DNA of 64,000 nucleotides. Origin: Escherichia coli (GTDB lineage Bacteria > Pseudomonadota > Gammaproteobacteria > Enterobacterales > Enterobacteriaceae). The translations under genes were made by a program, and so were the position numbers. The DNA lies in NCBI RefSeq assembly GCF_011045215.1, contig NZ_CP049201.1, one strand, 5' to 3'. Shown here piece by piece: positions 13,183-32,682 of this stretch (its first letter is position 1; each line of letters opens with the position of its first letter). The notes below the pieces were generated by a model. That model did no database searches, was not told the DNA's origin, and saw nothing but the letters and a program-made list of their open reading frames with translations.

Positions 13183-13267
13183 GCCGAAGTGGCGAAATCG
13201 GTAGACGCAGTTGATTCAAAATCAACCGTAGAAATACGTGCCGGTTCGAGTCCGGCCTTCGGCACCA
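13183..13267 (+). tRNA. leuX: tRNA-Leu (anticodon CAA)
   Basis: 85-nt sequence GCCGAAGTGGCGAAATCGGTAGACGC...TTCGAGTCCGGCCTTCGGCACCA with CAA anticodon loop, long variable arm and encoded CCA end. Confidence 0.93.
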
Positions 13268-13456: not shown

Positions 13457-14707
13457 ATGGCACTTACTGATATCAAAGTTAGGACTACCAAGCCCTCCGA
13501 CAAACCTTTCAAACTCACAGATGGGCAGGGTATGCACCTGCTGATCAACCCCAATGGTTCAAAATACTGGCGACTCCAATACCGTTTCGATGGCAAACAG
13601 AAAGTTTTAGCATTGGGTGTTTATCCAATGGTCTCTCTTGGTGAAGCTCGCAGGAAACGAGATGAGGCTAAAAAGTTGGTATCTGATGGTATCGACCCTT
13701 CCGAGAAGAAAAAGGCAGACAAGATCGAGCAGAGCGAAGCTCTTACTTTTGAATCTGTTGCCAGGGACTGGCATAAGGCTTGTAAAAGGAAATGGTCAGA
13801 TTCCCATAGCGAGAGAGTTCTAAAAAGCATGGAAGATGGTCTCTTTACTGCTCTTGGTAAAAGAAAAATATCCGAGCTTAATACCAGAGATCTTCTTGCC
13901 CCTATCAAGGCTGTTGAAGCTTCTGGGCGACTGGAAGTTGCTTCCCGCCTACAGCAAAGAACAACGGCAGTGATGCGATATGCTGTCCAGAACGGGCTGA
14001 TAGATTACAACCCTGCCCAGGAGATGGCAGGAGCTATTGCAGTAGCTAAAAGAGTCCACAGGCCAGCTTTGCCATTCGAACGATTCTCAGAACTTTTAGA
14101 ACGAATTGATAGTTTCAAGGGTAGAAAACTCACGAAGTTAGCCGTAAAGCTGACATTGCTCATTTTCATTCGTTCCAGTGAACTTAGGTTTGCTCGTTGG
14201 TCAGAGATAGATTTCGACAATGCCATGTGGACTATCCCTGGGGAACGTGAGCCATTGCCAGGGGTCAAACATTCTCATCGAGGCTCAAAAATGAAGACAC
14301 CACACCTCGTGCCGTTAAGTCGCCAGGCTATAGAACTCCTCAAAGCTATCAAAGAAATCAGCGGTGAATGTGAACTTGTATTCATTGGTGATCATGATTT
14401 TAGAAAGCCTATGAGTGAAAACACGGTAAACAAGGCTTTAAGGTCTATGGGCTACGACACTACGGTTGAAGTATGTGGACATGGTTTTCGTGCGATGGCA
14501 TGTAGTGCGTTGATCGAATCGGGAAAATGGTCAAGGGATGCTGTTGAACGGCAGATGAGCCACCAAGAGCGAAACTCCGTTCGTGCTGCCTACATTCATA
14601 AAGCAGAACACCTTGATGAAAGAAGGCTTATGTTGCAGTGGTGGGCTGATTACCTTAATGCCTTGAAAGATAGGTTTATCAGTCCCTTTGATTTTACAAC
14701 AAAGTAG
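13457..14707 (+). CDS. P4-family tyrosine integrase
   Basis: 416-aa ORF adjacent to the tRNA; N-terminal KPFKLTDGQGMHLLINPNGSKYWRLQYRFDGK arm-binding region and a C-terminal catalytic domain typical of P4-like integrases. Confidence 0.9.
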   Translation: MALTDIKVRTTKPSDKPFKLTDGQGMHLLINPNGSKYWRLQYRFDGKQKVLALGVYPMVSLGEARRKRDEAKKLVSDGIDPSEKKKADKIEQSEALTFESVARDWHKACKRKWSDSHSERVLKSMEDGLFTALGKRKISELNTRDLLAPIKAVEASGRLEVASRLQQRTTAVMRYAVQNGLIDYNPAQEMAGAIAVAKRVHRPALPFERFSELLERIDSFKGRKLTKLAVKLTLLIFIRSSELRFARWSEIDFDNAMWTIPGEREPLPGVKHSHRGSKMKTPHLVPLSRQAIELLKAIKEISGECELVFIGDHDFRKPMSENTVNKALRSMGYDTTVEVCGHGFRAMACSALIESGKWSRDAVERQMSHQERNSVRAAYIHKAEHLDERRLMLQWWADYLNALKDRFISPFDFTTK

Positions 14708-14794: not shown

Positions 14795-15934
14795 ATGTCC
14801 ACAATTAACCCCGCAATTTTTTCTTTTTTCTCTGGTTCAGGATTTCTTGATCTTGGATTTGAAAAAAATGGTTATGAAGTGGTTTTCGTGAATGAATACC
14901 ATGCTCCGTTTATGGATGCATATAAACATTCGAGGAAAAAATTAAATATAGCACCACCTCGTTTTGGGTATGCAGAGTGCAGTATTGAAGATGTAGAACA
15001 TGAAAAAATTAAGTCTTCTATGCTTCAACTTAAAAATGAGGGGCGATTGACTGGATTTATTGGTGGTCCACCATGCCCGGATTTCTCTGTAGCGGGTAAA
15101 AATAAAGGTCGAGATGGTGAAAACGGTCGGCTTTCACAAAGCTATATTGATATCATTCTTGAAATGAAACCAGATTTCTTTCTTTTTGAGAATGTTAAAG
15201 GTCTATACCGTACCAGTAAACATAGGGAATTTTTTGACCATTTAAAAACTCAATTAGAATCGGTTGGTTATTGTTTGCATGAAAAACTAATAAATTCTAT
15301 TGAATATGGTGCTCCTCAAGATAGGCAACGAATCATATTGATTGGTTTCCTTGATGAAAAATATGCAAGCCAATTCAATTGGGGGCAAAGAGTCTACCCT
15401 GAAAGAACTGCATTTGAATATAAATGGCCGACGACAAACCAATTTTCAGAAAACACTTCTGTTATAAAACCAAAGGGTATCCCAGAAGAGTTAACAGTAG
15501 AGCATTGGTTCAAGAAAAACCAGGTTGATAATCATCCAAATGCAAAGCATGTATTCGCGGCAAGAGCAGGGCTTGCGAGGTTTTTGACTGTCGAAGAAGG
15601 GGATGATAGTAAAAAATCCTATAAAAGGTTACATAGATGGAGATTTTCACCAACTGCTGCTTACGGTAATAATGAGGTACATTTACATCCTTATAAACCA
15701 AGAAGAATTACTGTTGCCGAAGCATTAGCAATTCAGTCTTTACCAAAAGAATTTGAATTACCTGCTTATATGACTCTGTCTAATATGTTTAAAACTGTCG
15801 GTAACGGTGTACCCTACTTAGCAGCGGCCGGTATTGCCAAATCTATTATAGAGCATTTAGGAATCGAATATGAGAGTAACTGCGGCGAACTTAGCACAGG
15901 CGATTGCCAATCTACCAAGAAACACGCAGTTTAA
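14795..15934 (+). CDS. DNA (cytosine-5)-methyltransferase
   Basis: Motif I FSGSGF, motif IV GGPPCPDFS, motif VI ENV and motif VIII QDRQR, in the canonical order. Confidence 0.85.
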   Translation: MSTINPAIFSFFSGSGFLDLGFEKNGYEVVFVNEYHAPFMDAYKHSRKKLNIAPPRFGYAECSIEDVEHEKIKSSMLQLKNEGRLTGFIGGPPCPDFSVAGKNKGRDGENGRLSQSYIDIILEMKPDFFLFENVKGLYRTSKHREFFDHLKTQLESVGYCLHEKLINSIEYGAPQDRQRIILIGFLDEKYASQFNWGQRVYPERTAFEYKWPTTNQFSENTSVIKPKGIPEELTVEHWFKKNQVDNHPNAKHVFAARAGLARFLTVEEGDDSKKSYKRLHRWRFSPTAAYGNNEVHLHPYKPRRITVAEALAIQSLPKEFELPAYMTLSNMFKTVGNGVPYLAAAGIAKSIIEHLGIEYESNCGELSTGDCQSTKKHAV

Positions 15935-16946
15935 TTATGTAAATGTGCGAAATTCGGGAAGAATCATTGTAACGAATGTTCAACTTCCCGAAGGCCCAAT
16001 AGAATTCAAAAGATTCGATCCAAAAAAGGGTGAGACACTGCATAGTTCTAAATCGGAAAGCATCTCCACACAAATGTTGTGGAGATTGGCTAATGCTTTA
16101 CAGGAAGATGTCCCTGTCAATTTGGATCGTATTTTTGGTGCAAGCTATAATACACGTGCTGTTCTCGAAAGCCTTTTGGCCCATACTCCTGAGTTTTATT
16201 GGTGTAAGCTTGATCGCCTTGAGGTAATGAACACTCAGAAAAATATTAAAAAAGGTCACAAGCACCTTATTTATAGACCAAATGACCCACATGAAAATGG
16301 TGTAGCAATAGAACATACTACTAATGTTATAATTTCTGAAATGAATTTAGATGTTGTCCATCAATCAGTTGATATAGAGACAATCTTACCTACTAAAGGA
16401 ATGACGATTGAGGAAAAAAGACGTCATGCACAAATTCAAATCTCATTAGTAAAAATAGGTCATTACTTAGGTTATCGGACATGGGTTGCAGCAAATGATC
16501 GTGGCCTCCAATATAATGGAAAATCTATAGCCCAAATGGATGGGGTCATAGATAATTTAAGAAATGAACAAGTGCTTCAATCATATGATAAAGCTATCAA
16601 AGAAGCTCGGCTTATAGATTGTATTTGGTTTCGAAATGGAAAATTAATGCCTGCAGTTATGGAGATTGAGCATAGCACTGGTATTAAAAGTGGTTTGGTA
16701 AGGATGAAACAATTTTATGATTATGCACCACAGTTAAAAAATATACGTTGGACCGTTGTGGCACCTGACGAATATAGAAATAAAGTTATAGAGTTTTCTA
16801 ATATGCCACAATTTAAAGAATTAGATACTCGATTCTTCCCCTATTCTGCTGTAGAGGAACTCTATTCATTATGTGCAAGAAGGAATCCTCAAGGAATTAC
16901 AGACGATTTCCTTGATGCATTCATGGAAAAGTGTGTGACACATTAA
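15870..16946 (+). CDS. Hypothetical protein, candidate restriction endonuclease partner of the methyltransferase
   Basis: 358-aa ORF overlapping the methyltransferase 3' end by 65 nt on the same strand; assignment by context only, no motif recognised. Confidence 0.45.
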   Translation: MRVTAANLAQAIANLPRNTQFNYVNVRNSGRIIVTNVQLPEGPIEFKRFDPKKGETLHSSKSESISTQMLWRLANALQEDVPVNLDRIFGASYNTRAVLESLLAHTPEFYWCKLDRLEVMNTQKNIKKGHKHLIYRPNDPHENGVAIEHTTNVIISEMNLDVVHQSVDIETILPTKGMTIEEKRRHAQIQISLVKIGHYLGYRTWVAANDRGLQYNGKSIAQMDGVIDNLRNEQVLQSYDKAIKEARLIDCIWFRNGKLMPAVMEIEHSTGIKSGLVRMKQFYDYAPQLKNIRWTVVAPDEYRNKVIEFSNMPQFKELDTRFFPYSAVEELYSLCARRNPQGITDDFLDAFMEKCVTH

Positions 16947-17083: not shown

Positions 17084-17893
17084 ATGAGAGTAATTAGCCC
17101 CTTTGAGGAATTGAAGAACTGGTTTAATCTTGATAACTATGAACCGATAAAATCGTTTACAATCAAGGAACTACATAGAGAGATTGTCTTTAGAGAAGCG
17201 ATTTTCGACAGTGTAAATTTTGGATGGGAAGATGATAATCAAAATTTAAGGTCTATCCTTGAAGGTAATCCTATTTTAAGCAGACAAGATAATAATCATG
17301 GTCATTTTGGCAAGGGCCAAAGACATGTTGCGCAGGTTAGCTTTGGTGATATAAAAAAATTAGAGAATAAGTTGATAATGTTTAGCATGGATTTTTTTGA
17401 AGAAAATGGTGATTTCAAAAAAGAGTTGAAAAAGAAACCAATAACAAAAACTATGAGAGACTTTTTTCTCAACAAAAATAGCAGCAAGATGTATGTATCA
17501 TTTGATTTGGGGTTATCTAGTGATGAGGAAATTATATCAGCCCTGCAAACTATGCTTCCAACTCTAAGGAAAGAATACGAGATTGACCCAGTAAAAACAG
17601 AAAAGATAGGGCTCGCAAAAATAAGAAAACTTGTCGATTACAACATTATTCCTATGATGGACTTACTAATTTGGTCAAAATTCAAAAAAGCAAAAATCTC
17701 AAATATGGTCTTGTCTCGTGTGTTGTATCCTGATTTCACTCACGAGATTAGAGGCGAAGATCACATTAAAGATACAGACAGGCCCATTGCTGAGAAGGCT
17801 TTAAATGGAGAGATAACTCGTAGTTTGGAGTACTTTCTTAGTAAAAACAGTCATCTCATCAACATACCGATTTCAGAACTCGGATCTCTCTAG
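17084..17893 (+). CDS. Hypothetical protein
   Basis: 269-aa AT-rich ORF, no recognisable motif. Confidence 0.5.
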   Translation: MRVISPFEELKNWFNLDNYEPIKSFTIKELHREIVFREAIFDSVNFGWEDDNQNLRSILEGNPILSRQDNNHGHFGKGQRHVAQVSFGDIKKLENKLIMFSMDFFEENGDFKKELKKKPITKTMRDFFLNKNSSKMYVSFDLGLSSDEEIISALQTMLPTLRKEYEIDPVKTEKIGLAKIRKLVDYNIIPMMDLLIWSKFKKAKISNMVLSRVLYPDFTHEIRGEDHIKDTDRPIAEKALNGEITRSLEYFLSKNSHLINIPISELGSL

Positions 17894-18058: not shown

Positions 18059-18265
18059 ATGAATACAACCAATCAAAGCTTAATTCGTTTACCAGAAGTC
18101 TTGAAACGAACTGGTTTCGGCAAGGCCTGGATCTATCGTCTGATCAGTGAAGGTCGGTTTCCGGCACCCGTTAAGATCGGAATTCGTGCCGTTGCTTTTG
18201 TCGAGAGTGAAGTTGACGAGTGGATTCTATCAGTTATCGAAACAAACAGAATTAAAGTTGCTTAA
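18059..18265 (+). CDS. alpA: AlpA-family DNA-binding regulator (excisionase-like)
   Basis: 68-aa ORF; LIRLPEVLKRTGFGKAWIYRLISEGRFPAPVKIG is a typical AlpA/MerR-like helix-turn-helix. Confidence 0.8.
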   Translation: MNTTNQSLIRLPEVLKRTGFGKAWIYRLISEGRFPAPVKIGIRAVAFVESEVDEWILSVIETNRIKVA

Positions 18266-18286: not shown

Positions 18287-18601
18287 ATGAATATCGAAGA
18301 ATTTATGAATGAAGAAAACCATATGTGCAATTTAGGCGAGGATCTTTTTTGCAAGATCTTCGAACCCGGAGCGATTTATGATTTGCCGAATAGCGATTTT
18401 AATAAAGAAATCATTTACTGGCTCAGTCAGTATCTTGTCGGAAATTTGAGACAACCTTTAGACGCGATCTCTGAGCTTGATATTTTCGAGCAGTTTTATG
18501 TTTACGAGACATGGTTCTCGCTAATTAAATGCCCAGATGAAATTAGAAATTTATCGAAACGGATAATTCGATATCAGATTGGGTTAAAAACCATTCTTTG
18601 A
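18287..18601 (+). CDS. Hypothetical protein
   Basis: 104-aa ORF starting 22 nt after alpA. Confidence 0.45.
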   Translation: MNIEEFMNEENHMCNLGEDLFCKIFEPGAIYDLPNSDFNKEIIYWLSQYLVGNLRQPLDAISELDIFEQFYVYETWFSLIKCPDEIRNLSKRIIRYQIGLKTIL

Positions 18602-18732
18602 AAGAACCTATATTTAGTACTATTTTGTAAATTGCATTGTTGAAATGATAGTGCTATTTGCTTTTTGATTTACAAAACATCTTTAACTTCTTTTAAAATA
18701 ATGGGTTAACTATTTTAAGTGAAAAGAAAGGA

Positions 18733-18762
18733 TTATAATATCCCTCTAGAGGGATATTATAA
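18733..18762. promoter_or_regulatory. Perfect 30-bp palindrome upstream of the recombinase trio (candidate operator or recombination core site)
   Basis: ttataatatccctctagagggatattataa is its own reverse complement; lies about 130 bp upstream of the first recombinase gene. Confidence 0.5.
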
Positions 18763-18893
18763 ATTTTCGGCCGGTATGCGTCATTGTAAAAGGGAATAAT
18801 ATTAAATTCAGGAAAATATATTTGTAAATTGCTTATGTTATATGCTTTATTTATTTTCACTGACAATTAAATGTAAATAGAGGCGATATTACT

Positions 18894-20156
18894 TTGAAAT
18901 ATAAAATAAAAAGATTGAAGAATAAAGATGGTATCAGAAGTTGCATTATTATTAATGAGAGCAACGGATTACCCTTGGTTTATTCTAACTTATATATGAG
19001 TGTTATTTCACGAACAAATAGCTATTCATTTTCAACAATGGAAGCAATAGCAAATGCTTTGCTTTTATTTGAAAGATATAATGCTTACATGAATGTGGAT
19101 GTTTTTGATATGGTAAATCCTGACATCGAAAAACTTGTCTCGAACAAAGGATATTTATTCGGGTTAATGAATGCCCTTTCTTACAGAAACGACTTAGAGA
19201 ATGTTACAAGCATTCTTAAAGAACAACATGTCTCTAAAAGAACCCTTTATTTCAAGATAATGACAATTGAAAATTACGTCAAATGGTTTTTTGATAACAT
19301 TGCTATCAATAATATTGATTCTTCTCGTTATGAAGCAATCAGTCGAGCATTTGATTTTATAAAGCCAAGAATAGAGAACGGAAAGAATTACAATATTGAA
19401 AGCGAAAGCAAATCATTGACAAATGAGCAAGTTACAACTTTGACTGATATGGTAAGTGTTAAATCTAAGATTAATCCATTTTCGGAGCATGTAAGGTTTC
19501 GAAATAATCTAATAATTAAAATTTTATTAGAGACAGGTATTAGGGGAGGGGAACTACTTAATATTAAGTTGGTTGATTTTGACTATGTCCACAAAAGTCT
19601 ATGCATAGTAAGAAGGCCAGATGATCAAAACGAACCACGATTAAGGCAACCATTGGTTAAAACTTTAGAAAGAAAAATACCATTGAGTATAGAATTGACT
19701 GAGTTAATACAGAATTATATTAGTGATTTCAGAGGTAAGCAGTGTCATGCAGGGGAGCATGACTATCTGCTTGTTACTCATAGCAGTAAAGGTCAATTAG
19801 GTCATGCATTAACTATTTCAGGTTATCAGAAAATTTTCGAACAAATTAGGAAAAATAGTAATGTTTTGAGCGATATTGTGGGGCATTCGCTAAGACATAC
19901 TTGGAATGTGAAATTCTCAGAAATGATGCTCATGAATTCGAACTCTCAGGAATATATTACTTATGAGAAAGTAAGAAATTATCTTATGGGGTGGAAAAAG
20001 AATAGTACAACCTCAGATATCTATAACCAAGCATTTATAGCACAAGAAAGCCGAAAAATAATGGCTGTTATTAATCCACTCAAAAACATAGTAGAGGACA
20101 AATCCAATGTTTCAAACTCTAAGAAAGCTACAAGAAAGTCAATATTCGGTTTTTGA
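18894..20156 (+). CDS. Tyrosine recombinase-like protein A (first of three tandem genes)
   Basis: 420 aa, probable TTG start; catalytic-domain elements TGIRGGE (Arg box), HSLRHT and a C-terminal Tyr (TSDIY). Confidence 0.75.
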   Translation: MKYKIKRLKNKDGIRSCIIINESNGLPLVYSNLYMSVISRTNSYSFSTMEAIANALLLFERYNAYMNVDVFDMVNPDIEKLVSNKGYLFGLMNALSYRNDLENVTSILKEQHVSKRTLYFKIMTIENYVKWFFDNIAINNIDSSRYEAISRAFDFIKPRIENGKNYNIESESKSLTNEQVTTLTDMVSVKSKINPFSEHVRFRNNLIIKILLETGIRGGELLNIKLVDFDYVHKSLCIVRRPDDQNEPRLRQPLVKTLERKIPLSIELTELIQNYISDFRGKQCHAGEHDYLLVTHSSKGQLGHALTISGYQKIFEQIRKNSNVLSDIVGHSLRHTWNVKFSEMMLMNSNSQEYITYEKVRNYLMGWKKNSTTSDIYNQAFIAQESRKIMAVINPLKNIVEDKSNVSNSKKATRKSIFGF

Positions 20157-21432
20157 AACCAAGGATGGTAATTTCAAAGTGAACTTTTCTTATTCCAAGT
20201 GGAAGATAAGTGAAAGTATAACATTGAACATTGATTCTTTAAGAGTGGTCATCAGTGCATATATACCTATCAAAACCACTTTGGCATATTTCGCTATAAA
20301 TTATAGTGCCAGTTATACTAAGAAAATGTTTTATGCAGTAAAGCATTACATTAAGGCCTGTAATACGAATGATAGCTTGTTTTCTAAAGATTGCATAAAG
20401 TATTACTATAAAGTTGTGAGCTCATTAGATTACACACATGCAGAGACAGTCAAATATTTTTTTATGAAGATGAGTGGTCTTTACCCATCTTTGTTTTCGG
20501 CAGAAGCAATCATATTTTTAGAAAATATTAAAGTTAAAAAAACAAATGCAAACAAGTCTATAAAGACACATGATTATAAAAAAGGTCCCTTTAGTGACTC
20601 GCAATTAAAGGTAATTATAGATTCTGTAGCGATAGCTTATAAGGAAGAAAAGGTAAGTCTGTCAAACTATCTGCTAACCTTCCTTGTTGCATATTCCGGG
20701 CGGCGACCTATGCAAATATCTCAACTTGAAGCTGGTGATCTCTTTGCTTTTAATGGAGAGTACTTTCTCAATATCCCAAGAATTAAACAACGAAATGGAT
20801 ATAGAAAAGAGTTTAGAAAATTACAAATTCCAGAAGAGCTTTTTAGCCAATTGACATATCTCGTTGAAGCTGTGAATTCGCTGGTCAGTGACACATTAAA
20901 AATCGATTTAAGTGAAAAACAAAAGAGAAAACTACCAATTTTTATAAACACATATCCATTCAAAAAAGGATGTGTTGAGCTAAACATGATTGAAAGTGGT
21001 GGATTAAAACTTAACCCCTATGCCATAACACTAAAAATAAGGAACACTATAAATCGTTCAATAAATGAATATCAAGCCTATCTGGGGTGTATAAATTCGC
21101 GCAGATTTAGATATTCATTAGGCACTAAGGTTGCACAATTGGGTTATAGTCCTTCACTGATAGCAAATGTTTTGGACCATTCTTCAATCAATTCTGTTAT
21201 GAGTTATATAGAAAATACAGCGGAAAATGGCAAGAGAATTAATGAAGCTGTAAATGAACTAATGAAGCCACTGGCTAACAAATTTATTGAGGGAAAAGAG
21301 CTTCAGAAAGAGTTAGATTCTTTGAAGCATTTGATAGAAGAATACTGCGGTGGATATAAAACTAACTCTTTTGATAATACAGCAATATCGTTAGTAACTA
21401 ATTCTATCGACGATATGATCAATAGCATTTAA
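20107..21432 (+). CDS. Tyrosine recombinase-like protein B (second of three)
   Basis: 441 aa; AYSGRRPMQISQLE Arg box, box II RRFRYSLGT with Arg in place of the usual first His, and a C-terminal Tyr (VMSYI); GAGGA ribosome-binding site; overlaps gene A by 50 nt. Confidence 0.7.
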   Translation: MFQTLRKLQESQYSVFETKDGNFKVNFSYSKWKISESITLNIDSLRVVISAYIPIKTTLAYFAINYSASYTKKMFYAVKHYIKACNTNDSLFSKDCIKYYYKVVSSLDYTHAETVKYFFMKMSGLYPSLFSAEAIIFLENIKVKKTNANKSIKTHDYKKGPFSDSQLKVIIDSVAIAYKEEKVSLSNYLLTFLVAYSGRRPMQISQLEAGDLFAFNGEYFLNIPRIKQRNGYRKEFRKLQIPEELFSQLTYLVEAVNSLVSDTLKIDLSEKQKRKLPIFINTYPFKKGCVELNMIESGGLKLNPYAITLKIRNTINRSINEYQAYLGCINSRRFRYSLGTKVAQLGYSPSLIANVLDHSSINSVMSYIENTAENGKRINEAVNELMKPLANKFIEGKELQKELDSLKHLIEEYCGGYKTNSFDNTAISLVTNSIDDMINSI

Positions 21433-21444
21433 AAGAAGGATAAA

Positions 21445-23052
21445 GTGATGAAAGAAATCCATGATAAAATGATTAATAACTTCATTATCGCTAATAAGGC
21501 CCATGCGAAAAATTTTGGAAATTTTGAGTGGGATAATTCAAGTTGGGGAGGCGGAATTACATTTTTTAGCGGAATCAAGGTTAGAATGGGGAACAAGAAT
21601 AAGAAATTAATGAATTATAACATTGCAGAGTTCGCAAAAGCATATGTATGGCATGAGTGCTTTCATGATTTATCTGTAGCTTTCAGAGTGCTGAGATTAT
21701 TTAGGATATTAGAAATTGCCATAGGTAAAACAAATAAAGAAGTTAAGATTTCAAGTATAGATCATAAAGTATTAGATGAAGTTATGACTATTGTTCAAGA
21801 AAATTTTGCAATATCCACTTCTTATAAAATATATTTAGATCTTAGGGTATTATGTTCTTTTATGTCTAAGAACGAAATGTTGCCAGAATCCATTACACGA
21901 TGGTCATATCCATTTAAGGCATATGATGCTTACACAAATAGCACAATGGATTCGATGGGAAATTTATCCAATCAGAAAAAACTTCCTGATGAAAAGGCTA
22001 TAGATTTTATTGGTAAAATATTTAGCTCTAATCCAGTTAATGAAAGGGATATATTTACATCTTCTATTTTTGCATTGCTCTTATGTGCTCCATCTCGAAT
22101 TAGTGAAATTATGCTTTTAGAAGAGGACTGTGAAGTTATAGTTGAAGATAGTAATGGCATATCAAGATATGGTTTGCGATTTCTTTCTCTGAAGGGCTTT
22201 GGATACAATACCAAATGGATTCCAGACTGTATGGTTTCTGTAGCTTCAAAGGCTATCATGCGATTGAAAAAACTTACAAGGAATGCAAGGGTTGTTTCTC
22301 GGTTAATAAAAGCAGGGGAAATTAATTTATACGAGTCATTAAACAAAAGTGCGTTTGATTGTTTAACAATTGAAGATCTCCACAAACTTGGCTTTGTTAT
22401 AAATCAATTAAATATCTCCCAAGAAAATCTAAAATTCTTGGCTAAGATAAAACATGGTACAGTCAGTGTAAAAGCATTTTGGATTTATATAGAGCGAAAG
22501 AATGTTAATTCTGAAAATATTAATGCTAATTTATGCTCCATAAATCATAATTTATTGGACTCTATCAAGGGTGCTGATATTTTTACAACAATTAAGGCAT
22601 CTTCAAAGTATTTTAGAGCGGATTTTCGCACCGATAATATGAATAACATATTTCATAGGAATATACATTTTAACTGTGATGGTTCTGTTTTAATTTTCCG
22701 CAGCCATCAAATTAGACATTTACTTAATACTATAGCTCAACGAAGCGTATTGTCAGAGATACAAATTGCCCAATGGTCTGGGAGAAGGAGTGTTAAGCAG
22801 AATTCAGTATATGATCATATGTCTCACAACGAGTTATCAGAACTATCAAGGAAACTATTGAACGGAAACACCTACGAAGAAACAAAAATTTCAGCATCTT
22901 CATTTAATGAACAATCGATTATTATGAATTTGATTAAAGATAAATTTGAAAAACTAGAATTAAAAATCCAAAATTCAGATCCAAGAAAAAGAAAATATAT
23001 TCTGGAAAAAATTAAAGATTTAAGATTGGAAATTGAATACATATTAATGTGA
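21445..23052 (+). CDS. Tyrosine recombinase-like protein C (third of three)
   Basis: 535 aa, GTG start; CAPSRISEI Arg box, HQIRHLL box II and a C-terminal Tyr (NSVYDH). Confidence 0.7.
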   Translation: MMKEIHDKMINNFIIANKAHAKNFGNFEWDNSSWGGGITFFSGIKVRMGNKNKKLMNYNIAEFAKAYVWHECFHDLSVAFRVLRLFRILEIAIGKTNKEVKISSIDHKVLDEVMTIVQENFAISTSYKIYLDLRVLCSFMSKNEMLPESITRWSYPFKAYDAYTNSTMDSMGNLSNQKKLPDEKAIDFIGKIFSSNPVNERDIFTSSIFALLLCAPSRISEIMLLEEDCEVIVEDSNGISRYGLRFLSLKGFGYNTKWIPDCMVSVASKAIMRLKKLTRNARVVSRLIKAGEINLYESLNKSAFDCLTIEDLHKLGFVINQLNISQENLKFLAKIKHGTVSVKAFWIYIERKNVNSENINANLCSINHNLLDSIKGADIFTTIKASSKYFRADFRTDNMNNIFHRNIHFNCDGSVLIFRSHQIRHLLNTIAQRSVLSEIQIAQWSGRRSVKQNSVYDHMSHNELSELSRKLLNGNTYEETKISASSFNEQSIIMNLIKDKFEKLELKIQNSDPRKRKYILEKIKDLRLEIEYILM

Positions 23053-23061
23053 GGAGATTAT

Positions 23062-23460
23062 ATGGCAAGAAAGTTTTATGATAAAGAAATAAAAGCTATT
23101 GTTAAACTTATTGAAACCTGGAGTAAGCCTGATTTCACTTGGGATTCTTTATGCGTGGCTTGCAAAAAAATTTTAGGTAAAGTACCTACACGGCAAGCAT
23201 TAAGCCAGCATAGTGAGATTGTCGTTGCGTATAGGACCAGAAAAAGATCTGGTATGGTTAAACGTCAAAATACGAAGTTACCCGGTAGCCTGAGCCTTGC
23301 GGCGAAAAGAATAGAACGACTTGAAAATGATAATTCGGCACTAAAATATGAAAATAATAATTTACTGCTTATGATTCAAAGAATGCACGAAAATGCTTAC
23401 AGGCATAATATATTGGCTTCTATTCTTGAAGAAGAATTTCCACAGAGAGCAAGAAAATAA
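23062..23460 (+). CDS. Small basic protein with a predicted coiled coil, coupled to the recombinase trio
   Basis: 132-aa ORF starting 9 nt after recombinase C; the C-terminal half (AAKRIERLENDNSALKYENNNLLLMIQRMHENAY) looks coiled-coil. Confidence 0.5.
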   Translation: MARKFYDKEIKAIVKLIETWSKPDFTWDSLCVACKKILGKVPTRQALSQHSEIVVAYRTRKRSGMVKRQNTKLPGSLSLAAKRIERLENDNSALKYENNNLLLMIQRMHENAYRHNILASILEEEFPQRARK

Positions 23461-23545
23461 TATTTTGATAGGTTTTATCTATTGACAGGTGATGTTAATA
23501 TGGTATTTGTAAATATAGTCAGGAAGACAAAACTAACTTGCAAGG

Positions 23546-23983
23546 ATGCAATTTATGGACAAACAACACAATTTTCCAGTGGAAACACTGGAAGAGCAGC
23601 TTATTATTATCGTTGATAAATATATCTCAAAACGGTACCAGCCGGGCGATAAAAGTTTCTCATACCAGCTATACCTGCTTTTTGTTGGCTATCACTTAAA
23701 GTATTTCTACCCCAAAAAACTTTATACTCGCTCTAATCGCAACATAGACAACATTATGACAATGTTTAGTTCTGTATACAAATGTCTTACAAGTACTTTG
23801 TTACAGCGATTAAATAATAAGGAAGCTGTTATCAGGGAGCTAAACTCTCTCGTTAACTATATTGATAACAATCAAGAACGAGCAGAAGAAATCTTTATAG
23901 CTATCAAAACTCAATATGAGATAAAAGCAATAGAGAAAGAACTAACCCATGAAGTCGTTAGAGTAAAAAATGTTAGATTATAA
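23546..23983 (+). CDS. Hypothetical protein
   Basis: 145-aa ORF followed by a terminator hairpin. Confidence 0.45.
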   Translation: MQFMDKQHNFPVETLEEQLIIIVDKYISKRYQPGDKSFSYQLYLLFVGYHLKYFYPKKLYTRSNRNIDNIMTMFSSVYKCLTSTLLQRLNNKEAVIRELNSLVNYIDNNQERAEEIFIAIKTQYEIKAIEKELTHEVVRVKNVRL

Positions 23984-23984
23984 A

Positions 23985-24010
23985 AGCTCCCGAAAGGGAG
24001 CTTCATTTTA
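23985..24010. terminator. Putative bidirectional terminator
   Basis: Stem agctccc/gggagct with a gaaa loop, flanked by A/T runs, between convergent genes. Confidence 0.6.
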
Positions 24011-24023
24011 CTAATTTTCTTTA

Positions 24024-24287
24024 TTAATAACTTCCTACTTGCCAGCCATCATCTGATTTTATTAATTTAACTGTTCCAGCTTGCTTTGTTCCGCTCATAT
24101 CCATAATTATATTGCACTTATAGCTTTTATCAGATTCTTTTGTGCAATCTACTTTTTTTACTGAAGTCAGATAGCTTCCAGTCCATTTTCGCATAGCTTT
24201 AAAAATATCATCTTGGGAAGGCTCACTACTACATGCAGTAAGAAGAAATACGGAAATAATAACAGCAAGGACCGAAGATATTTTCAT
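24024..24287 (-). CDS. Putative lipoprotein
   Basis: 87 aa; signal peptide with lipobox LLTAC. Confidence 0.6.
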   Translation of the reverse strand: MKISSVLAVIISVFLLTACSSEPSQDDIFKAMRKWTGSYLTSVKKVDCTKESDKSYKCNIIMDMSGTKQAGTVKLIKSDDGWQVGSY

Positions 24288-24311
24288 TAGACTTAATCCT
24301 GATTAAGTATG

Positions 24312-24698
24312 TTACTGAAAAATGCCAGATTTTGTATTATTATTATCAGTAGAGAATGTCCATTTGCTGACAATTTCGCCTTTAAAATCTATTTCAAGAG
24401 TTTTGGACTGAGTCTGTGAACCACCAGTTAGTAGCCCAACTACAGGAATGAAAGTCGAGGCATTGAACTGATTGTTATACATAAAATATCTCCATTGCTC
24501 GTTGCCATCATCAAGAGTCGTTCTTGTATCTGGTTCACCTAACTTAGCGAGTAGCTCGTTCTTAGTAGTCTTGTTTTTAATGATCTTTGACTGAAGACTT
24601 TGTGCAGTTTCATTTTCAATTTGTTGGTTCCCGGATGTTGAGCAGCCAGAAATTAAAAATATTGCAATGAAAAAGGCGGTAACAATAGATTTATTCAT
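24312..24698 (-). CDS. Putative lipoprotein
   Basis: 128 aa; signal peptide with lipobox LISGC. Confidence 0.6.
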   Translation of the reverse strand: MNKSIVTAFFIAIFLISGCSTSGNQQIENETAQSLQSKIIKNKTTKNELLAKLGEPDTRTTLDDGNEQWRYFMYNNQFNASTFIPVVGLLTGGSQTQSKTLEIDFKGEIVSKWTFSTDNNNTKSGIFQ

Positions 24699-24727
24699 TC
24701 TATCTTCCTTATTATATTTGGTCAGGG

Positions 24728-25006
24728 TTAACTTTTATGTGTGAAAACGGCTCTGTGGGCAAATTTCTTGCGTAAATAAAATCTTAAAGAAATTGCTGAG
24801 GCAAAATAGATAACGACAGTTAATATAAAACTTTGACTGATAGCGAATATGAAGAAAGCAATTACTAACAGCACAATTCCTATGAGTAAAGCTAACCAGG
24901 CCGAAGGTTCACCATAATTTATTGTTGCGTGACAGCCGATACAGACACGAACTCCGAACGGACTCTCTTTGAAGCAGAACGGGCACTTAATGGTCTCTTT
25001 ACTCAT
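24728..25006 (-). CDS. Zinc-ribbon membrane protein
   Basis: 92 aa; N-terminal CPFC...CIGC four-cysteine motif followed by two hydrophobic helices. Confidence 0.55.
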   Translation of the reverse strand: MSKETIKCPFCFKESPFGVRVCIGCHATINYGEPSAWLALLIGIVLLVIAFFIFAISQSFILTVVIYFASAISLRFYLRKKFAHRAVFTHKS

Positions 25007-25259
25007 ACAAACTCCGTTTATTCAACAGGTTCCTGATACTACAAATTGTTTAAAAATCATCAGGTTCTTTTCAGGGATTCTCGATGAATAATTATCTTTA
25101 GTAAAATCACTTGTACCGATCGATGTTTGAATCATGATAGGTAAAAACTATCATAACTAGATTATCGATCTGTATTAACGATCAATAATTTCTTGACATA
25201 ATATAAATTAGTTACTGTATAGTTAAGAGTGTTTGAGAATAATCAATACAAGTAATTGT

Positions 25260-26405
25260 CTATAAACGAATTTTTATCGCCTTGTTTAAAGGTTTCATTG
25301 CGTAGATATTTGAGAAGGTCGTGTGTGTTTTGTGAAGAATGGTCTTACCAAAGCTTCTCAGAAGCTCGATGTAATGCTTTATGGAAGCAAGCCACTCTAC
25401 GAATCTGAGATGCTTTTGCCGTTGTACTGCATTTTTTTGAAGAATCTTTCCTACGATTTCGTTTCGTTTGTCTTCTCTAAGCCGTAATTCCAGTTCTGCA
25501 ATTTTTTCAACGATACTTTCCTTTCTCTCAGTGGTTTTCAACACTGTTGCAGGAGCAGGAGCAGCAGGTTGGTCTTTTGTCGATATGTCGCTTCGTAGAG
25601 CTTCTAAGTGGTCGGGGTTGTAGTTAAGCCGATTACTGAGATTTGCCCAGGAGTAGCTCTTGCCCAATTGTGAAGCTTTGAAAGCTATGCCTGTGTATTC
25701 GAAAGAGAAGCCGTTCATTTTACCGGTAGAGGCAATATTGGCCTTCCAAGATACTTCAGCTTCTTCCAGCCTCTTGATAAAAGTTAGAAGGTCCGGCTTA
25801 TCAGATAAACTTTTATCAAGTATCTGCTGCAGAGCTTCTCTTGGTGAAAGCACCCCGGTTCGTTCCGATAGCATTTTCTCATTACGGGACACTCTCTTCC
25901 GCTTCGGTTGTGCTTGCGAGGGGGGAGATGCAGTTTTGGTCACTGTCAGGCCATGAGCGATTTCGAGTTTACTGATGATCTGTGTGCTGATGAGGTTTTC
26001 GTTCCTACCCAAGTAGAGCTTCCCACCATTGAGATCTATGCGACTTGCGATAATGTGTATGTGCTGGCCATCGTCGTCATGAAGCACATAGCAACGAAGG
26101 TGAGTATCCCTGAACCCCATCCTCTTCATGTAGTCATCTGCGATAATGGACCACTGTTCATTCGTTAGTGTTTCACCGTCGGGTAAGCGAAGTGAGTTGT
26201 GCCAAACGGGTTTTGCGACATCTAGGCGAAGATGCTTGGTGCTATCGAATTCAGCGATCATTTCAACGGCTGAATCACTTAACATGTTCCCGCCAATGAC
26301 GACTGGATCGCTTTTGTGGTGTGCTCCCGATTGTAATACATAACGAACAACACCAGCGAAGCTCTTACCCCTCTTGATCTTCCGCATACCCTTCACGAGG
26401 GACAC
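25260..26405 (-). CDS. Relaxase (MobA/VirD2-type mobilisation nuclease)
   Basis: 381 aa; three-histidine motif HDDDGQHIHII typical of the relaxase/mobilisation nuclease domain; overlaps the upstream mobC-like gene. Confidence 0.75.
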   Translation of the reverse strand: MSLVKGMRKIKRGKSFAGVVRYVLQSGAHHKSDPVVIGGNMLSDSAVEMIAEFDSTKHLRLDVAKPVWHNSLRLPDGETLTNEQWSIIADDYMKRMGFRDTHLRCYVLHDDDGQHIHIIASRIDLNGGKLYLGRNENLISTQIISKLEIAHGLTVTKTASPPSQAQPKRKRVSRNEKMLSERTGVLSPREALQQILDKSLSDKPDLLTFIKRLEEAEVSWKANIASTGKMNGFSFEYTGIAFKASQLGKSYSWANLSNRLNYNPDHLEALRSDISTKDQPAAPAPATVLKTTERKESIVEKIAELELRLREDKRNEIVGKILQKNAVQRQKHLRFVEWLASIKHYIELLRSFGKTILHKTHTTFSNIYAMKPLNKAIKIRL

Positions 26406-26739
26406 TCCAAAAATCTGTTCTTAACAAGTTGTGACGAAGCTCTTCAAGTTGTCGCTTCACAGCGAAAAGCTCTGTATGAGTAAGCTGGCTATCTTTACTC
26501 TTACTGTCGATATGGAGAGCAATACGATTCAACTTTTGTGATATGTCAGACAATTTTTTCCAGGCTTCAGTATTAATTGTCGGTACTACTGGTGGCAGGT
26601 TTTGCAGAAATGACATGCGGAGCCATTCACCTTTACTTTTATTACCTCGTTTTATATTTAAAATCTGTAATTCATTGTTGTTGAGTCGAACACTTATACA
26701 ATGTATTCTAATTCTGTCATCTAATCTTAATTTAGCCAT
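26365..26739 (-). CDS. MobC-like relaxosome accessory protein
   Basis: 124 aa; KLNRIALHI resembles the MobC N-L-N-Q-I-A-R motif; 41-nt overlap with the relaxase gene. Confidence 0.65.
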   Translation of the reverse strand: MAKLRLDDRIRIHCISVRLNNNELQILNIKRGNKSKGEWLRMSFLQNLPPVVPTINTEAWKKLSDISQKLNRIALHIDSKSKDSQLTHTELFAVKRQLEELRHNLLRTDFWSVPREGYAEDQEG

Positions 26740-26885
26740 ATAAGTTCCTTTTATATGATTTAATATGATTAATGATAGTTATTATTTCCCATTAGTCAAT
26801 AGCAGAACGGTTTTGATATATGGGTTTAATGTGCTAAAAATAAATCTCTCTGAAATAAAGTATTCAAAGATTCCCTAAATTAAAA

Positions 26886-28049
26886 TTAAGGATGATCTAT
26901 TGAAACAAACTTTTGACTAAACTCCAGCCATCTTGCATTATCAACATCCTTCACAAAAGCAATCAGACCTGCGACATGATTGTAAAAGCCAATTGGAGAG
27001 TCAAATTTTTCATGTCTTGCAACTTCTGAGAGACCAAATTTTTTTATTGAGTAAAGGTGGCGTTCAATACGTTTATAAGTTTGTTTAGATAATCGAGGGA
27101 CATTGCCATCAACAAGTAATCCTAAAACTATTTTTTTTGAACCAGGTCCAGCTACTCTTATTTTGCTTACGTTTTCTTTGAAATGGTGCTTACGAATGAT
27201 GCTGATAATGTTATTTTGTATTTTTCCAACCGAAACACCGTCGGGTAGAGTACCACCGCAGGATAATGTTATATCATCAGCATATCGAGTATAAGTGAAG
27301 CCATATTTATTAGCATATTCAGATAGAGAAATATCTAACTTTACAGTGGCTAAATTACTAAGCATTGGGCTACTCGGTGCCCCTTGAGGTAGCACTCCTA
27401 ACGGCCATGGTTCTGATATGTCCCAAAAAAGGCTCTTCTCTTTATTTTGTCCGTAAAGCTTATATTCCTTAGTTGAGTGCTTAGGAACAGAAATTAGAGA
27501 TTGTAAATGTTGTGGTAAACGTATAGTTGTGCATAGCCTTGATAGTTCAAATGCTATTAATGGCCGATATCCAGCATTTTTAAAAACCATATAAACATCA
27601 GATTCATTTATTGAATAAAAGAAATCGGAAATGTCGAATTGGAAGAGCCATTTAGCACCACAATGCTGTTCTGCACATTTTCTGATGCCACCATTAGGAT
27701 GGAAAGCAAAAGAAGTATTATGGGGAACTAACTTTTTTAATATTTCACTATTGATGAAATGCTGTACTTTAAATATCTCGCCAGTTACAGCATGAATATG
27801 GCGTCTTCCACCTGAACGTTTTTTTATAGCAAACATGCGATAATTTGCTGATTCACGGCGGCGTGATACAGTGGATCGTAGCAAGCGATAATCAACACCA
27901 GTAATTTTTGAAAGATGGCGTAATGTAAAAATTACAGGGAGATTATTTTTCTTCAGATTACTTGCATAATTTCTTAAGTTTAGAGCCTGTGTCTTCCCTA
28001 AGGATGACTCTGCATTTTGATAAAGTTGGTGTGCTGACCAGATTTCCAT
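26886..28049 (-). CDS. Reverse transcriptase, retron-type or defence-associated
   Basis: 387 aa; motifs FDISDFFYSI, LPQGAPSSP, catalytic YADD, and a thumb-like KIRVAGPGSKKIVLGLLV; no maturase, endonuclease or other extra domain. Confidence 0.85.
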   Translation of the reverse strand: MEIWSAHQLYQNAESSLGKTQALNLRNYASNLKKNNLPVIFTLRHLSKITGVDYRLLRSTVSRRRESANYRMFAIKKRSGGRRHIHAVTGEIFKVQHFINSEILKKLVPHNTSFAFHPNGGIRKCAEQHCGAKWLFQFDISDFFYSINESDVYMVFKNAGYRPLIAFELSRLCTTIRLPQHLQSLISVPKHSTKEYKLYGQNKEKSLFWDISEPWPLGVLPQGAPSSPMLSNLATVKLDISLSEYANKYGFTYTRYADDITLSCGGTLPDGVSVGKIQNNIISIIRKHHFKENVSKIRVAGPGSKKIVLGLLVDGNVPRLSKQTYKRIERHLYSIKKFGLSEVARHEKFDSPIGFYNHVAGLIAFVKDVDNARWLEFSQKFVSIDHP

Positions 28050-28237
28050 TCACCTATCCTTTGAGCCCAGGGGGCCATCAGTGTCATACATTTTCCGAGT
28101 CCTCGATGGCCGTTAATGTATGACATTGAAGGGCGGCGTAGCCGCCTTTGCGTCAGATCTTTCCAGAGATGTTTCTCCAACATCCCCATCCGTTGTAACA
28201 AAAGCCACAACAGATTCTGTCAAACAAGCGGTGAACT
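28050..28237 (-). ncRNA. Candidate structured non-coding RNA upstream of the reverse transcriptase (possible retron msr-msd)
   Basis: 188-bp intergenic region with an 11-bp perfect stem (28082-28092 with 28115-28125), an interleaved 7-bp stem (28073-28079 with 28105-28111) and a GGCGGC-gta-GCCGCC hairpin (28132-28146). Confidence 0.35.
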
Positions 28238-29458
28238 TCACTCATCATTGTTTAACGGCTGAACGGAGTGCTGATCAGCACACCAAGACTCTGGAATGTA
28301 AAGACCAAAATCCCATACACTATCGTTTTTAACATGCCTAGAATTTACAAGTATGTCAAGTCCGAATTTAGATAATCGTTTTTGAGTTGTCAATAGTCCT
28401 AATGTCTCTGCATATATGAGTAGTTTTTCTACATACGAACAATCAACATTCAAACGTAAGGCAATGCTTTTGTTATCTCTGACACCTCTTTTTATAAGTT
28501 TTAGTAAATTTATAATTTCGGGAGATAAAGATGAATGGGGGGAAGTGTTATGCTTTGTTCCATTTTCTAACAAGGCAAGCAGCCATCCTGGAATTGCTCT
28601 ATCAGGCATTAGTCCTTGCCATTTTTTATTAGAAAACCATAGTATTCCAGGAAGGTTATTAGGGACGCTATGATAAAAAATTATATTAGATAAAACATTA
28701 CCATAGCCAAGACGAGCCCATGGAGGAATTTTGGTTTGATTTTTACAAAGATTGATTATTTCATTATACTGCTCACCCCACCGAGTTTCTAACCAATTTT
28801 CATTATATACGATGTTACTTATGAAATTGATTTTTTCAGATTTTCTATATTTTCTTACTCCATGGTCTGAGCCGCGAATAGTATTGATTATTCTATTTTC
28901 AGAACCTAGTGTTCTGGCGAAAGAAATTAAAGTTAATCTTACTAGTCCTAAACTCCACCAACTTAAAAAGGTAGGGTTATCGAGCATGGCATTAATAAAT
29001 CCGGATACTCTATCACCACTACCAATCGAATCATCAATAAGTAAAAAATCGTTGACTTTAGATTTTTTCAGATCATTGAGTGATGGATGATCTAAAAACA
29101 TAGTTTTATTAGACCGCACAAGGTTTGAAATAATTGAATATACTAAGTCTTCGCTACCTTGCGAATGACCTGGTCTATTAACAACATCACCATTAAGGTC
29201 CCATAATACTTGTTTGTCTGGATCTAATTTGCGAACTGAATAAAGGGCATAATTTTTATTTTTTGGTAAATCAGAAATGCTCTTTTGAAGCCATATGGTA
29301 AACTCATCTCTACTTACAAAAGTTAACTTGCTCAAGATGTTTTTTGCAATCGCTTTTTGGCTGCTATTAAATTGCATAAGCCATTGAGCTATTTCCTGAG
29401 AGGATTCAATTTTTTCTACTGAAAGTATTTTAAATTTAGGTTTGTCTCTTGTTTTCAT
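28238..29458 (-). CDS. Phosphoribosyltransferase-like protein with a C-terminal helix-turn-helix region (candidate effector)
   Basis: 406 aa; PRPP-binding-type motif FLLIDDSIGSGDRVSG in the N-terminal half; HTH-like KSIALRLNVDCSYVEKLLIYAETLGLL near the C-terminus. Confidence 0.65.
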   Translation of the reverse strand: MKTRDKPKFKILSVEKIESSQEIAQWLMQFNSSQKAIAKNILSKLTFVSRDEFTIWLQKSISDLPKNKNYALYSVRKLDPDKQVLWDLNGDVVNRPGHSQGSEDLVYSIISNLVRSNKTMFLDHPSLNDLKKSKVNDFLLIDDSIGSGDRVSGFINAMLDNPTFLSWWSLGLVRLTLISFARTLGSENRIINTIRGSDHGVRKYRKSEKINFISNIVYNENWLETRWGEQYNEIINLCKNQTKIPPWARLGYGNVLSNIIFYHSVPNNLPGILWFSNKKWQGLMPDRAIPGWLLALLENGTKHNTSPHSSLSPEIINLLKLIKRGVRDNKSIALRLNVDCSYVEKLLIYAETLGLLTTQKRLSKFGLDILVNSRHVKNDSVWDFGLYIPESWCADQHSVQPLNNDE

Positions 29459-29693
29459 TTTTTTTAACCACTGTCAGGGCAATTGTTATTTCATAACATA
29501 AAAAGTAATGATGGTAAAGGTTTTGTTGTATCATTAACCTTCTTTATAACTGAGTAGACTAAGTTTAGTACTCTTATACGAAGCTAAATGAGCTAAATAT
29601 TAAATACTAAAATGTAATGGCGGATATTTTTCAACCGAAGGGCGAAAAACAAGGGAACGCAAAGAAGCGGAGCTTCGATGAGTTAGCCCTTGC

Positions 29694-30278
29694 TTATTCA
29701 TATGATTTGTATTTCTTTTCATCTACTAAATTTATTATGGACGATGAGGTTTTATATATCAACTTTACATTGTGTAAAGATATATTGTGTTTGCTAATAA
29801 AATATAAAAGATCCAATAGCATCTGTTCTTGCCGTTCTTGTGGAAACTCTAATTTTACGATTGGAGTAAATTCAACAATAAAACCACTATTCAACAGTAG
29901 TTTTATGTAGCTAAATGAGTTTGGCGTAACTGTTTTGATTTTTATTATTTTATTAGTAATTAGATGCTTATGGTTTATAATAATGTGAGGGTTGAGCAGT
30001 GCCATATCATATGACATGAATGTTAAACCATGACTATCTATTATGTTCAAGTCGATACCAAGTTGTATAAACATATCGATTATTGCTTTGCTATGTATCC
30101 AGTTATAAAATAAAGGTGTCCTTCCATAGTTATCTAAATGATTTAGGTCGGCTCCTGCAGCTAAAAGAGATGTTGTAAGTAAATAGTCATTAGAATAAAA
30201 TAATGGTGTACGACCACAATTATCCTTTAAGTTTATTAAACCATTGTCTATGAATATATTAGATAAATTATTGTGCAT
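29694..30278 (-). CDS. Ankyrin-repeat protein
   Basis: Two GRTPLFY...L..GADLN ankyrin units; start placed at the Met preceded by a perfect AAAGGAGGT ribosome-binding site. Confidence 0.65.
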   Translation of the reverse strand: MHNNLSNIFIDNGLINLKDNCGRTPLFYSNDYLLTTSLLAAGADLNHLDNYGRTPLFYNWIHSKAIIDMFIQLGIDLNIIDSHGLTFMSYDMALLNPHIIINHKHLITNKIIKIKTVTPNSFSYIKLLLNSGFIVEFTPIVKLEFPQERQEQMLLDLLYFISKHNISLHNVKLIYKTSSSIINLVDEKKYKSYE

Positions 30279-30339
30279 TTTACCTCCTTTTATCATTATG
30301 TATATTAAAAAAAGGAGGTTGTCAATATTTAGAGGTTAG

Positions 30340-30588: not shown

Positions 30589-30643
30589 TATTATACTCCT
30601 TGATAATGATGGTTTATTTCAATGGGCTCGCGATATCACTACC

Positions 30644-31519: not shown

Positions 31520-31528
31520 GAAATCCCC

Positions 31529-32680: not shown

Positions 32681-32682
32681 TA

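Follow-up and report, generated by a model that had tools for sequence, protein, structure and literature searches.

The 64,000-nucleotide stretch of Escherichia coli DNA considered here (contig NZ_CP049201.1 of assembly GCF_011045215.1, hereafter the window) carries, between positions 18,894 and 23,460, three consecutive tyrosine-recombinase genes and a small fourth gene. These three recombinase paralogues and their small neighbour probably constitute a ginABCD operon, i.e., the module for recombination by which GInt elements are defined, internal to a mobilisable defence island integrated at leuX. The operon comprises (i) ginA (18894-20156, plus strand), encoding from a TTG start a tyrosine recombinase of 420 amino acids (aa) with the full R-H-R-H-W-Y set; (ii) ginB (20107-21432, plus strand), encoding a tyrosine recombinase of 441 aa that matches NF041502 at 5e-73; (iii) ginC (21445-23052, plus strand), encoding from a GTG start a large divergent tyrosine recombinase of 535 aa, in its short form; and (iv) ginD (23062-23460, plus strand), encoding a small basic protein of 132 aa, predicted to be accessory. 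The original prediction had proposed three tandem recombinase genes and a coiled-coil protein packed tightly on one strand, and the four open reading frames (ORF1 to ORF4) are reproduced in the ORF list, with an overlap of 50 nt between ORF1 and ORF2 and gaps of 12 nt between ORF2 and ORF3 and of 9 nt between ORF3 and ORF4. RefSeq orthologs of ORF1 start at an ATG two codons upstream, a codon that reads ATT in the window. The GC content of the operon region is 0.31-0.34, compared to ~0.54 in the flanking core. All four gin ORFs are intact and under purifying selection, with ratios of nonsynonymous to synonymous substitution rates (dN/dS) of 0.06-0.31 against two relatives, the lowest being that of ginD (0.058).

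The GInt operon has been described as three tyrosine-recombinase-type genes plus a small fourth gene, and all four gin genes are needed for circularisation and integration in Pseudomonas GInts (PMC5385486). The window operon resembles this arrangement in the number, order, sizes and tight packing of its genes, in encoding three recombinase-fold proteins and a small protein with a helical C-terminus, in the cargo that extends from the ginD stop codon, and in beginning shortly after the stop codon of the upstream gene. In E. coli O55:H7 RM12579, the orthologs of these genes, including that for WP_000658560.1, are ~98% identical to the window at the nucleotide level, and WP_000658560.1 and its neighbour have already been catalogued as ginC and ginD orthologs, as have WP_004200787 and WP_004200789 from Klebsiella (PMC10214605, Additional file 10). 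Because the O55:H7 genes are already listed as ginC and ginD, the trio itself is no longer novel: it is a known kind of system, and the interest lies in its context. The multi-recombinase module of the original prediction therefore stands, and its seeming lack of a match among described systems does not, since ginABCD matches the order, the sizes and the fourth gene.

One genome per species was scanned with the GinC alignment, disclosing 80 loci of other species, and tblastn and blastp searches with the window proteins followed. The GinA-GinB-GinC-GinD order and strand are constant across the 80 loci, and the full set is present in all 73 that are not cut by contig ends; comparative genomics, proposed at the outset as a check, hence reveals a widespread unit. 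The arrangement is more than chance, because the order is kept in 73 of 73 uncut loci and dN/dS remains between 0.06 and 0.31. In addition, 38 of the 80 loci are located directly downstream of ssb, where several GInt families are reported to insert, so that genuine GInts are represented among the homologues. The window GinC aligns with its counterparts in the ssb-site GInts of Pseudomonas, Stutzerimonas and Yersinia at 28-34% identity (E ≤ 1e-46, tblastn).

Fold and catalytic residues of the Gin proteins

GinA matches Pfam Phage_integrase at 2.8e-16, its box I aligning to the XerH structure, and GinB matches the same family at 3.1e-6; GinC returned no match in Pfam, NCBIfam, PHROGs or a PDB sequence profile. 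The AlphaFold2 model of GinC, built on 24 homologues and with a predicted local distance difference test score (pLDDT) of 76, aligns with Tn1549 Int, Cre and XerH at a Foldseek probability of 1.0 over more than 400 columns. The assignment of all three large proteins to the recombinases is accordingly upheld, by Pfam for ORF1 and ORF2, by AlphaFold and Foldseek for ORF3, and by an Arg...Arg...Tyr pattern conserved among the homologues, the recombinase fold being found by profile or structure search.

Conservation of the catalytic residues was assessed in alignments of 81-87 homologues per protein from the 80 loci. The candidate catalytic set of GinA comprises R217, H331, R334, H335, W367 and Y377, each 100% conserved. 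Among the candidate residues of GinB, R200, R335 and Y367 are 100% and H358 is 99% conserved, and the box II His position is occupied by Arg in the window and by R, N, T or Q across the family. The candidate set of GinC, namely R218, K250, H421, R424, W444 and Y456, is 98-100% conserved, and the 87 GinC homologues, including the ssb-site proteins of Pseudomonas and Stutzerimonas, display the near-invariant motifs APSR(I/A)SE, (S/T)HQxRH and WSGR…Y(N/D)H. Comparison of the Gin families with one another by hhalign yields low probabilities (2-51%), yet the local alignments land on the catalytic boxes, and the profile-profile correspondence equates GinC R218 with GinA R217, and GinC H421, R424 and Y456 with GinB R332, R335 and Y367; these results are taken as support for residue correspondence only. 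The Y456 region falls in a low-confidence part of the GinC model.

The first Arg is absent from GinC according to Bardaji 2017 (PMC5385486), and GinC is devoid of the RHRY motif and of the catalytic Tyr according to Idola 2023 (PMC10214605). Contrary to both papers, the full catalytic set appears to be present in 87 of the 87 GinC homologues examined, and all three Gin recombinases appear, from their sequences, to be catalytically competent; if the GinC set is real, the published statements on GinC need revising. The window protein differs from the GInt descriptions not only in keeping all catalytic residues but also in the absence of a Cys-rich C-terminal segment: with 535 aa it represents the short form, whereas the forms of 624-677 aa carry an extra Cys/His-rich segment (alignment columns ~560-700, …CVHDY…PCEK…DC..C…QVC…) and a long C-terminal tail.

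GinD shows an isoelectric point of 10.0, with 26 Lys and Arg residues against 14 Asp and Glu, and its AlphaFold2 model (pLDDT 83) comprises short helices between residues 7 and 65, forming an N-terminal bundle that carries a conserved PTRQSL motif, and one 40-residue helix at 75-114. The protein is predicted to be a small basic helical DNA-binding or accessory protein. Of its earlier description as a basic coiled-coil protein, the basic character holds, and the coiled coil, for which the C-terminal helix of the model offers a candidate, is plausible rather than demonstrated.

That the operon belongs instead to another multi-recombinase family, i.e., the recombinase-in-trio (RIT), Tn554-type, SE or GMT systems, is extremely improbable, although all of these are tandem tyrosine-recombinase systems and Tn554, SE and GMT also possess a small extra gene. 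Tn554 resembles the window operon in its tandem tyrosine recombinases, one of them large, and in a small third protein (TnpC), but it encodes two recombinases (TnpA and TnpB), not three; RIT elements encode RitA, RitB and RitC without a conserved fourth gene and are flanked by inverted repeats. Both are set apart by description, and the judgement of the original prediction that the module fits neither is sustained by the fourth gene, the three recombinases and the outcome of the inverted-repeat search it had suggested, which found no terminal inverted repeats around the module. The module of SE, the strand-biased circularising integrative elements (intA-tfp-intB-srap), is likewise a four-gene module at one end of a gammaproteobacterial integrative element, combining an ordinary and a large tyrosine recombinase with a small auxiliary protein that has a C-terminal coiled coil; however, Tfp is non-catalytic and SE termini are imperfect inverted repeats of 13-19 bp, whereas ORF2 of the window keeps R200, R335, H358 and Y367. 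The published clustering also separates GinC and GinD from Tfp and Srap and lists this type of locus under GInt (Idola 2023, PMC10214605). Gamma-Mobile-Trio (GMT) islands (bioRxiv 10.1101/2023.03.28.534373) share an island-defining recombinase trio, defence-rich cargo and a small VPA1267-family gene after the trio, and weak matches connect ORF2 to GmtY (E 6e-4) and ORF4 to the VPA1267 family (E 0.057), but these scores are far under the cut-offs (19 bits vs 340 and 13.6 bits vs 90, respectively), and GMT islands are distinguished by the Phage_Integr_2 domain of GmtZ, a GmtX of unknown fold and insertion at inverted-repeat sites.

Exchange of gin types within a conserved backbone

DNA resembling the gin flanks is present in approximately 760-790 of the 5,426 complete genomes of E. 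coli, and a synthetic joined-flank query detected contiguous flanks, the signature of a gin-less backbone, in none of 786 E. coli genomes. The 104-aa ORF that adjoins the gin region upstream (18287-18601, plus strand) has a common variant of 99 aa, accompanied by a gin operon in 8 of 8 distinct contexts. The presence of gin is obligatory in this backbone, and gin types are exchanged. In E. coli IAI1, the same leuX island displays flanks 78-92% identical to those of the window and Gin proteins just 26-37% identical, with a GinC of 624 aa. Compared to islands of other gin types, homology stops at 18575-18603, where the 104-aa ORF ends, and resumes at 23454-23468, around the ginD stop codon (23458-23460), the point at which the cargo changes. 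A second ginC/ginD pair was observed in O55:H7 RM12579 (NC_017656.1) at 3245667-3247695 (annotated in RefSeq as similar to NP_311536/NP_311537), so that one genome can hold several gin-bearing islands of different types.

The same backbone, with the same or different gin types, is found at leuX, at ssrA (E. coli strain 135), and at tRNA-Arg and tRNA-Thr genes in other genera; it also adjoins fljBA in Salmonella and occupies chromosomal sites in Pantoea and Erwinia. On an inferred circular map, the integrase/attP module always lies between the cargo and the DUF6387 gene, in either orientation. DUF6387 is the last gene distal to the integrase in E. coli strain 135 (L003), Salmonella (L090) and Pantoea (L057, L064 and L071), as in EARL islands, and in all examined leuX islands it adjoins the integrase and is co-oriented with it. 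The integrase/attP module thus appears exchangeable in either orientation. No inversion polymorphism of the interior was seen among the examined pairs of E. coli leuX islands, in which integrase and DUF6387 are adjacent and co-oriented. An inversion mediated by IS3 in strain 135 was considered and rejected, since both copies of the insertion sequence just interrupt genes. One step rightwards, the Pantoea element holds defence cargo only.

The operon and the downstream relaxase block also occur without AlpA and DUF6387 in Xenorhabdus, Dickeya, Citrobacter, Klebsiella, Pectobacterium and Erwinia, where other conserved genes lie upstream. A second conserved upstream context (L008, L032, L054, L078, L084 and L065; Dickeya, Citrobacter, Klebsiella, Erwinia and Pantoea) comprises a minus-strand ORF of ~195 aa and a plus-strand ORF of ~200 aa, with defence genes such as GapS6b nearby. 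Past the relaxase, the cargo varies strongly from island to island. These loci bear on the unlikely alternative of a mobilisable GInt that begins at ginA and has its right end close to the leuX attR, its cargo comprising the 145-aa ORF, the lipoprotein genes, the relaxase gene and the defence genes; the genes for the P4 integrase, DUF6387 and AlpA would then form a separate small integration module that hosts it. The persistence of gin with the relaxase block in six genera lacking AlpA and DUF6387 and the highly variable cargo past the relaxase are consistent with such an element, which would also place gin at the 5' end and the cargo from the ginD stop codon, as published. Nevertheless, the repeat expected at its right end was not found, the last 3.4 kb before attR are 97-99% identical between islands of different gin types, and the AlpA-less loci have conserved upstream genes of their own, so that gin is again internal; moreover, the position of the integrase/attP module at one point of the circular map, in either orientation, fits a single modular element.

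Candidate Gin sites and the role of the operon

The 292 nt between the 104-aa ORF and ginA (18602-18893, plus strand) represent a putative left-end and control region, to which the Gin proteins might bind. The ginA start lies 293 nt past the stop codon of the 104-aa ORF, itself an island gene. Five TGTAAA/TTTACA hexamers, at 18626+, 18669-, 18785+, 18823+ and 18872+, make up the sole TGTAAA cluster of the island, and across 76 loci of both context classes the 320 nt preceding ginA show an ~8-10-fold enrichment of TGTAAA. A perfect 30-bp palindrome (18733-18762, TTATAATATCCCTCT/AGAGGGATATTATAA) is located 130 nt upstream of ginA and is retained with paired changes in E. coli strain 135 and in Pantoea stewartii (L007). 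The left ends of ssb-type GInts share the layout of target-gene stop codon, TGTAAA, hairpin, further TGTAAA and ginA, the hairpin at the equivalent place being GC-rich. In our working model, the Gin proteins would bind the TGTAAA repeats and the palindrome and, without depending on the P4 integrase, would provide a second system of site-specific recombination; the unit on which they act would have its left edge at the stop codon of the 104-aa ORF (~18602). Elsewhere in the window, three TGTAAA hexamers occur within 50 nt at 45998-46045, between a fimE-like ORF (45259-45855) and a fimA-like ORF (46279-46884); they are probably inside the fim switch region, and their clustering is likely coincidental.

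On the other side of the operon, the junction downstream of ginD (23461-23545, plus strand) is a conserved, promoter-like region containing TGATAGGTTTTATCTATTGACA ... TTTGTAAAT at 23506-23516, where homology to islands of other gin types resumes. Published GInts are flanked by imperfect direct repeats of 10-17 nt and end in a short AT-rich 3' region; neither Gin-type flanking repeats nor an AT-rich 3' end was identified here. The two edges of the exchanged segment share an imperfect repeat matching at 11 of 15 positions (AAAACCATTCTTTGA / AAAATAATATTTTGA), non-significant by estimate. The ssb-type loci were searched for another copy of the 3' end of ssb; their flanks are too short, and a single weak match in L039 lies inside coding-like sequence.

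The edges so defined could be those of a self-contained minimal GInt, a selfish cassette of 4.9 kb (~18602-23461) consisting of the upstream region and ginABCD, inserted site-specifically where the 104-aa ORF ends and replaceable by other gin types that use the same site. This interpretation, which we regard as quite improbable, draws on the sharp, recurrent homology breaks at 18575-18603 and 23454-23468, on flanks that remain 78-92% identical while the Gin proteins drop to ~33%, on a left end laid out as in ssb-type GInts, which likewise start at a stop codon, on the 11/15 repeat, and on the reported use of one insertion site by distantly related GInts (Bardaji 2017, PMC5385486). Yet an empty site occurs in none of the 786 E. 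coli genomes and in none of the eight contexts of the 99-aa variant, the repeat is by estimate not statistically meaningful, and the cargo of published GInts amounts to 2.5 kb or more (PMC5385486). Furthermore, gin stays linked to the downstream relaxase block in several genera without the upstream AlpA and DUF6387 genes, and the exchange between the window and O55:H7 has its breakpoints in the flanking genes.

Several observations likewise weigh against the proposal that the operon is a GInt module acting on this island. First, the recent exchange with O55:H7, which carries the same gin type, is delimited by a high-identity block (18475-23875) whose breakpoints fall inside flanking genes and which for this reason points to homologous recombination, not site-specific cassette movement. 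Second, a Gin right end was not found: the candidate left end, aligned locally with 23400-38300, gave a score lower than those of shuffled controls, a motif scan disclosed no second TGTAAA cluster in the island, and the inverted-repeat search around the module was negative, as stated above. Third, the window operon lies in the interior of an island whose ends are att repeats of the P4-integrase/tRNA type, whereas published GInts have the operon at their 5' end, with attL at the end of a target gene; the island encodes a relaxase, whereas published work regards GInts as putatively non-mobilisable; and the identity of the window GinC to ssb-type GinC is just 28-34%. Finally, the P4 integrase, the AlpA-like gene and the att repeats suffice to account for the insertion of the island, so the role of gin here is unproven.

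A relic, or a repurposed module that no longer moves DNA, such as a regulator or a dimer-resolution system of the island, would account for the lack of detectable Gin-specific ends on an island equipped with a complete P4-type integration module. This explanation is nonetheless very unlikely in view of the four intact ORFs under purifying selection, of catalytic residues conserved at 98-100% in 81-87 sequences, and of the module being kept in each of the ~786 islands of E. coli even as gin types are swapped; a role in resolution is still conceivable.

On a more speculative level, the gin operon of Enterobacterales might be no passenger GInt but an obligatory, exchangeable core module of a large family of defence islands with a P4 integrase, AlpA, DUF6387 and a relaxase, present in ~14% of complete E. 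coli genomes, and such islands might be dual-recombinase elements in which the P4 integrase serves tRNA integration, and three active Gin recombinases together with GinD perform a second job. If so, that job could be the replicative 'copy-out' of circles for relaxase-mediated transfer or, alternatively, the exchange of cassettes and cargo at two hotspots, with the corollary that GinC is an active recombinase and not a fold protein devoid of catalysis. The GInt, SE and GMT elements, recognised only recently as multi-recombinase systems, raise the questions of why three recombinases are needed and of whether excision proceeds by cut-out or copy-out. E. coli offers a tractable setting (IAI1, O55:H7 RM12579 and ETEC 120899, an enterotoxigenic strain), in which gin, a P4-type integrase, an excisionase-like gene and a relaxase reside on one 20-kb island; because both recombination systems coexist there, their contributions are genetically separable. 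In the literature searched, gin does not appear to have been reported as a core module of defence islands that combine a P4 integrase with a relaxase. The locus bears on the spread of anti-phage defence islands in Enterobacterales, here carrying a type III-A retron, NsnABC and a Dcm-type restriction-modification pair, and surveys of GInts in this order may count internal modules of tRNA islands as GInts.

The enclosing leuX island and its neighbourhood

The island extends over 21.6 kb (13268-34822) and is bounded by 23/24-nt tRNA repeats. Its left boundary is the tRNA-Leu(CAA) gene leuX (13183-13267, plus strand), whose 3' end (13244-13267) constitutes attL, followed by the P4-type integrase gene (13457-14707, plus strand; NF007246, 3.5e-71), the orthologs of which carry Arm-DNA-bind_3, Phage_int_M and Phage_integrase domains. 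The right boundary, attR (34800-34822, plus strand), repeats the 3' end of the tRNA directly, at 23/24 nt, and has arm-like GATGGTAT repeats before it; it has a one-base deletion compared to the tRNA, and was missed by an ungapped search allowing three mismatches and found by gapped alignment. Homology with the leuX islands of ETEC 120899 and IAI1 ends at 34821. The nesting of the module in a tRNA-integrated island with its own P4-type integrase, as originally proposed, is confirmed by the location of the tRNA gene, the integrase and the repeat of the tRNA 3' end.

Between integrase and operon, the island comprises a Dcm-type methylase with a partner ORF (14795-16946), located between the integrase and DUF6387, and the upstream backbone, which includes the DUF6387 protein gene (17084-17893, plus strand), a gene for an AlpA/excisionase-like helix-turn-helix protein (18059-18265, plus strand) and the 104-aa ORF. 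The backbone downstream of gin (23546-26739) consists of a 145-aa ORF on the plus strand, three small lipoprotein or membrane ORFs on the minus strand, a MobA/VirD2-type relaxase gene (25260-26405, minus strand; PF03432, 2.3e-23, with MobP-like NCBIfam matches) and a 124-aa ORF (26365-26739, minus strand) that overlaps it and encodes, judged by position only, a putative relaxase accessory protein. The cargo comprises the type III-A retron (26886-29458; reverse transcriptase 5.6e-160, phosphoribosyltransferase 2e-93) and NsnABC (30644-34599; 6e-94 to 2e-115).

As a whole, the island resembles the EARL/ROD21-like family, the signature of which includes a P4 integrase, an AlpA recombination directionality factor (RDF), a DUF6387 gene and a relaxase (PMC10763509; PMC6035254). 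The likeness extends to a P4-related integrase beside a tRNA gene, flanking direct repeats, an AlpA-family RDF-like gene by a DUF6387 (SEN1998-type) gene, the relaxase, SEN1984-type lipoprotein annotations on relatives and an H-NS paralog in the Salmonella relative. On the other hand, differences are found: (i) ICEKp258.2 has no gin operon (PMC10763509), and the main text of the EARL paper makes no mention of extra integrases (PMC6035254); (ii) the target is tRNA-Leu here and tRNA-Asn in EARL; (iii) AlpA and DUF6387 lie beside the integrase and are co-oriented with it in the window, compared to the distal end in EARL; and (iv) the window relaxase matches MobA/VirD2, with MOBP-like hits, EARL islands being described with a MOBQ relaxase plus TraD, and TraD was not found among the window ORFs scanned.

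Beyond attR, a second low-GC stretch (34823-38168; GC 0.31-0.36) separates the island from the nan/fim core. It contains two ORFs (35500-36051 and 36099-37547) without a PADLOC match, no integrase was seen there, and it may be the remnant of a tandem island. The stretch is followed by a gene for an HNH-type restriction endonuclease (38169-39098), which is truncated in ETEC 120899 and IAI1.

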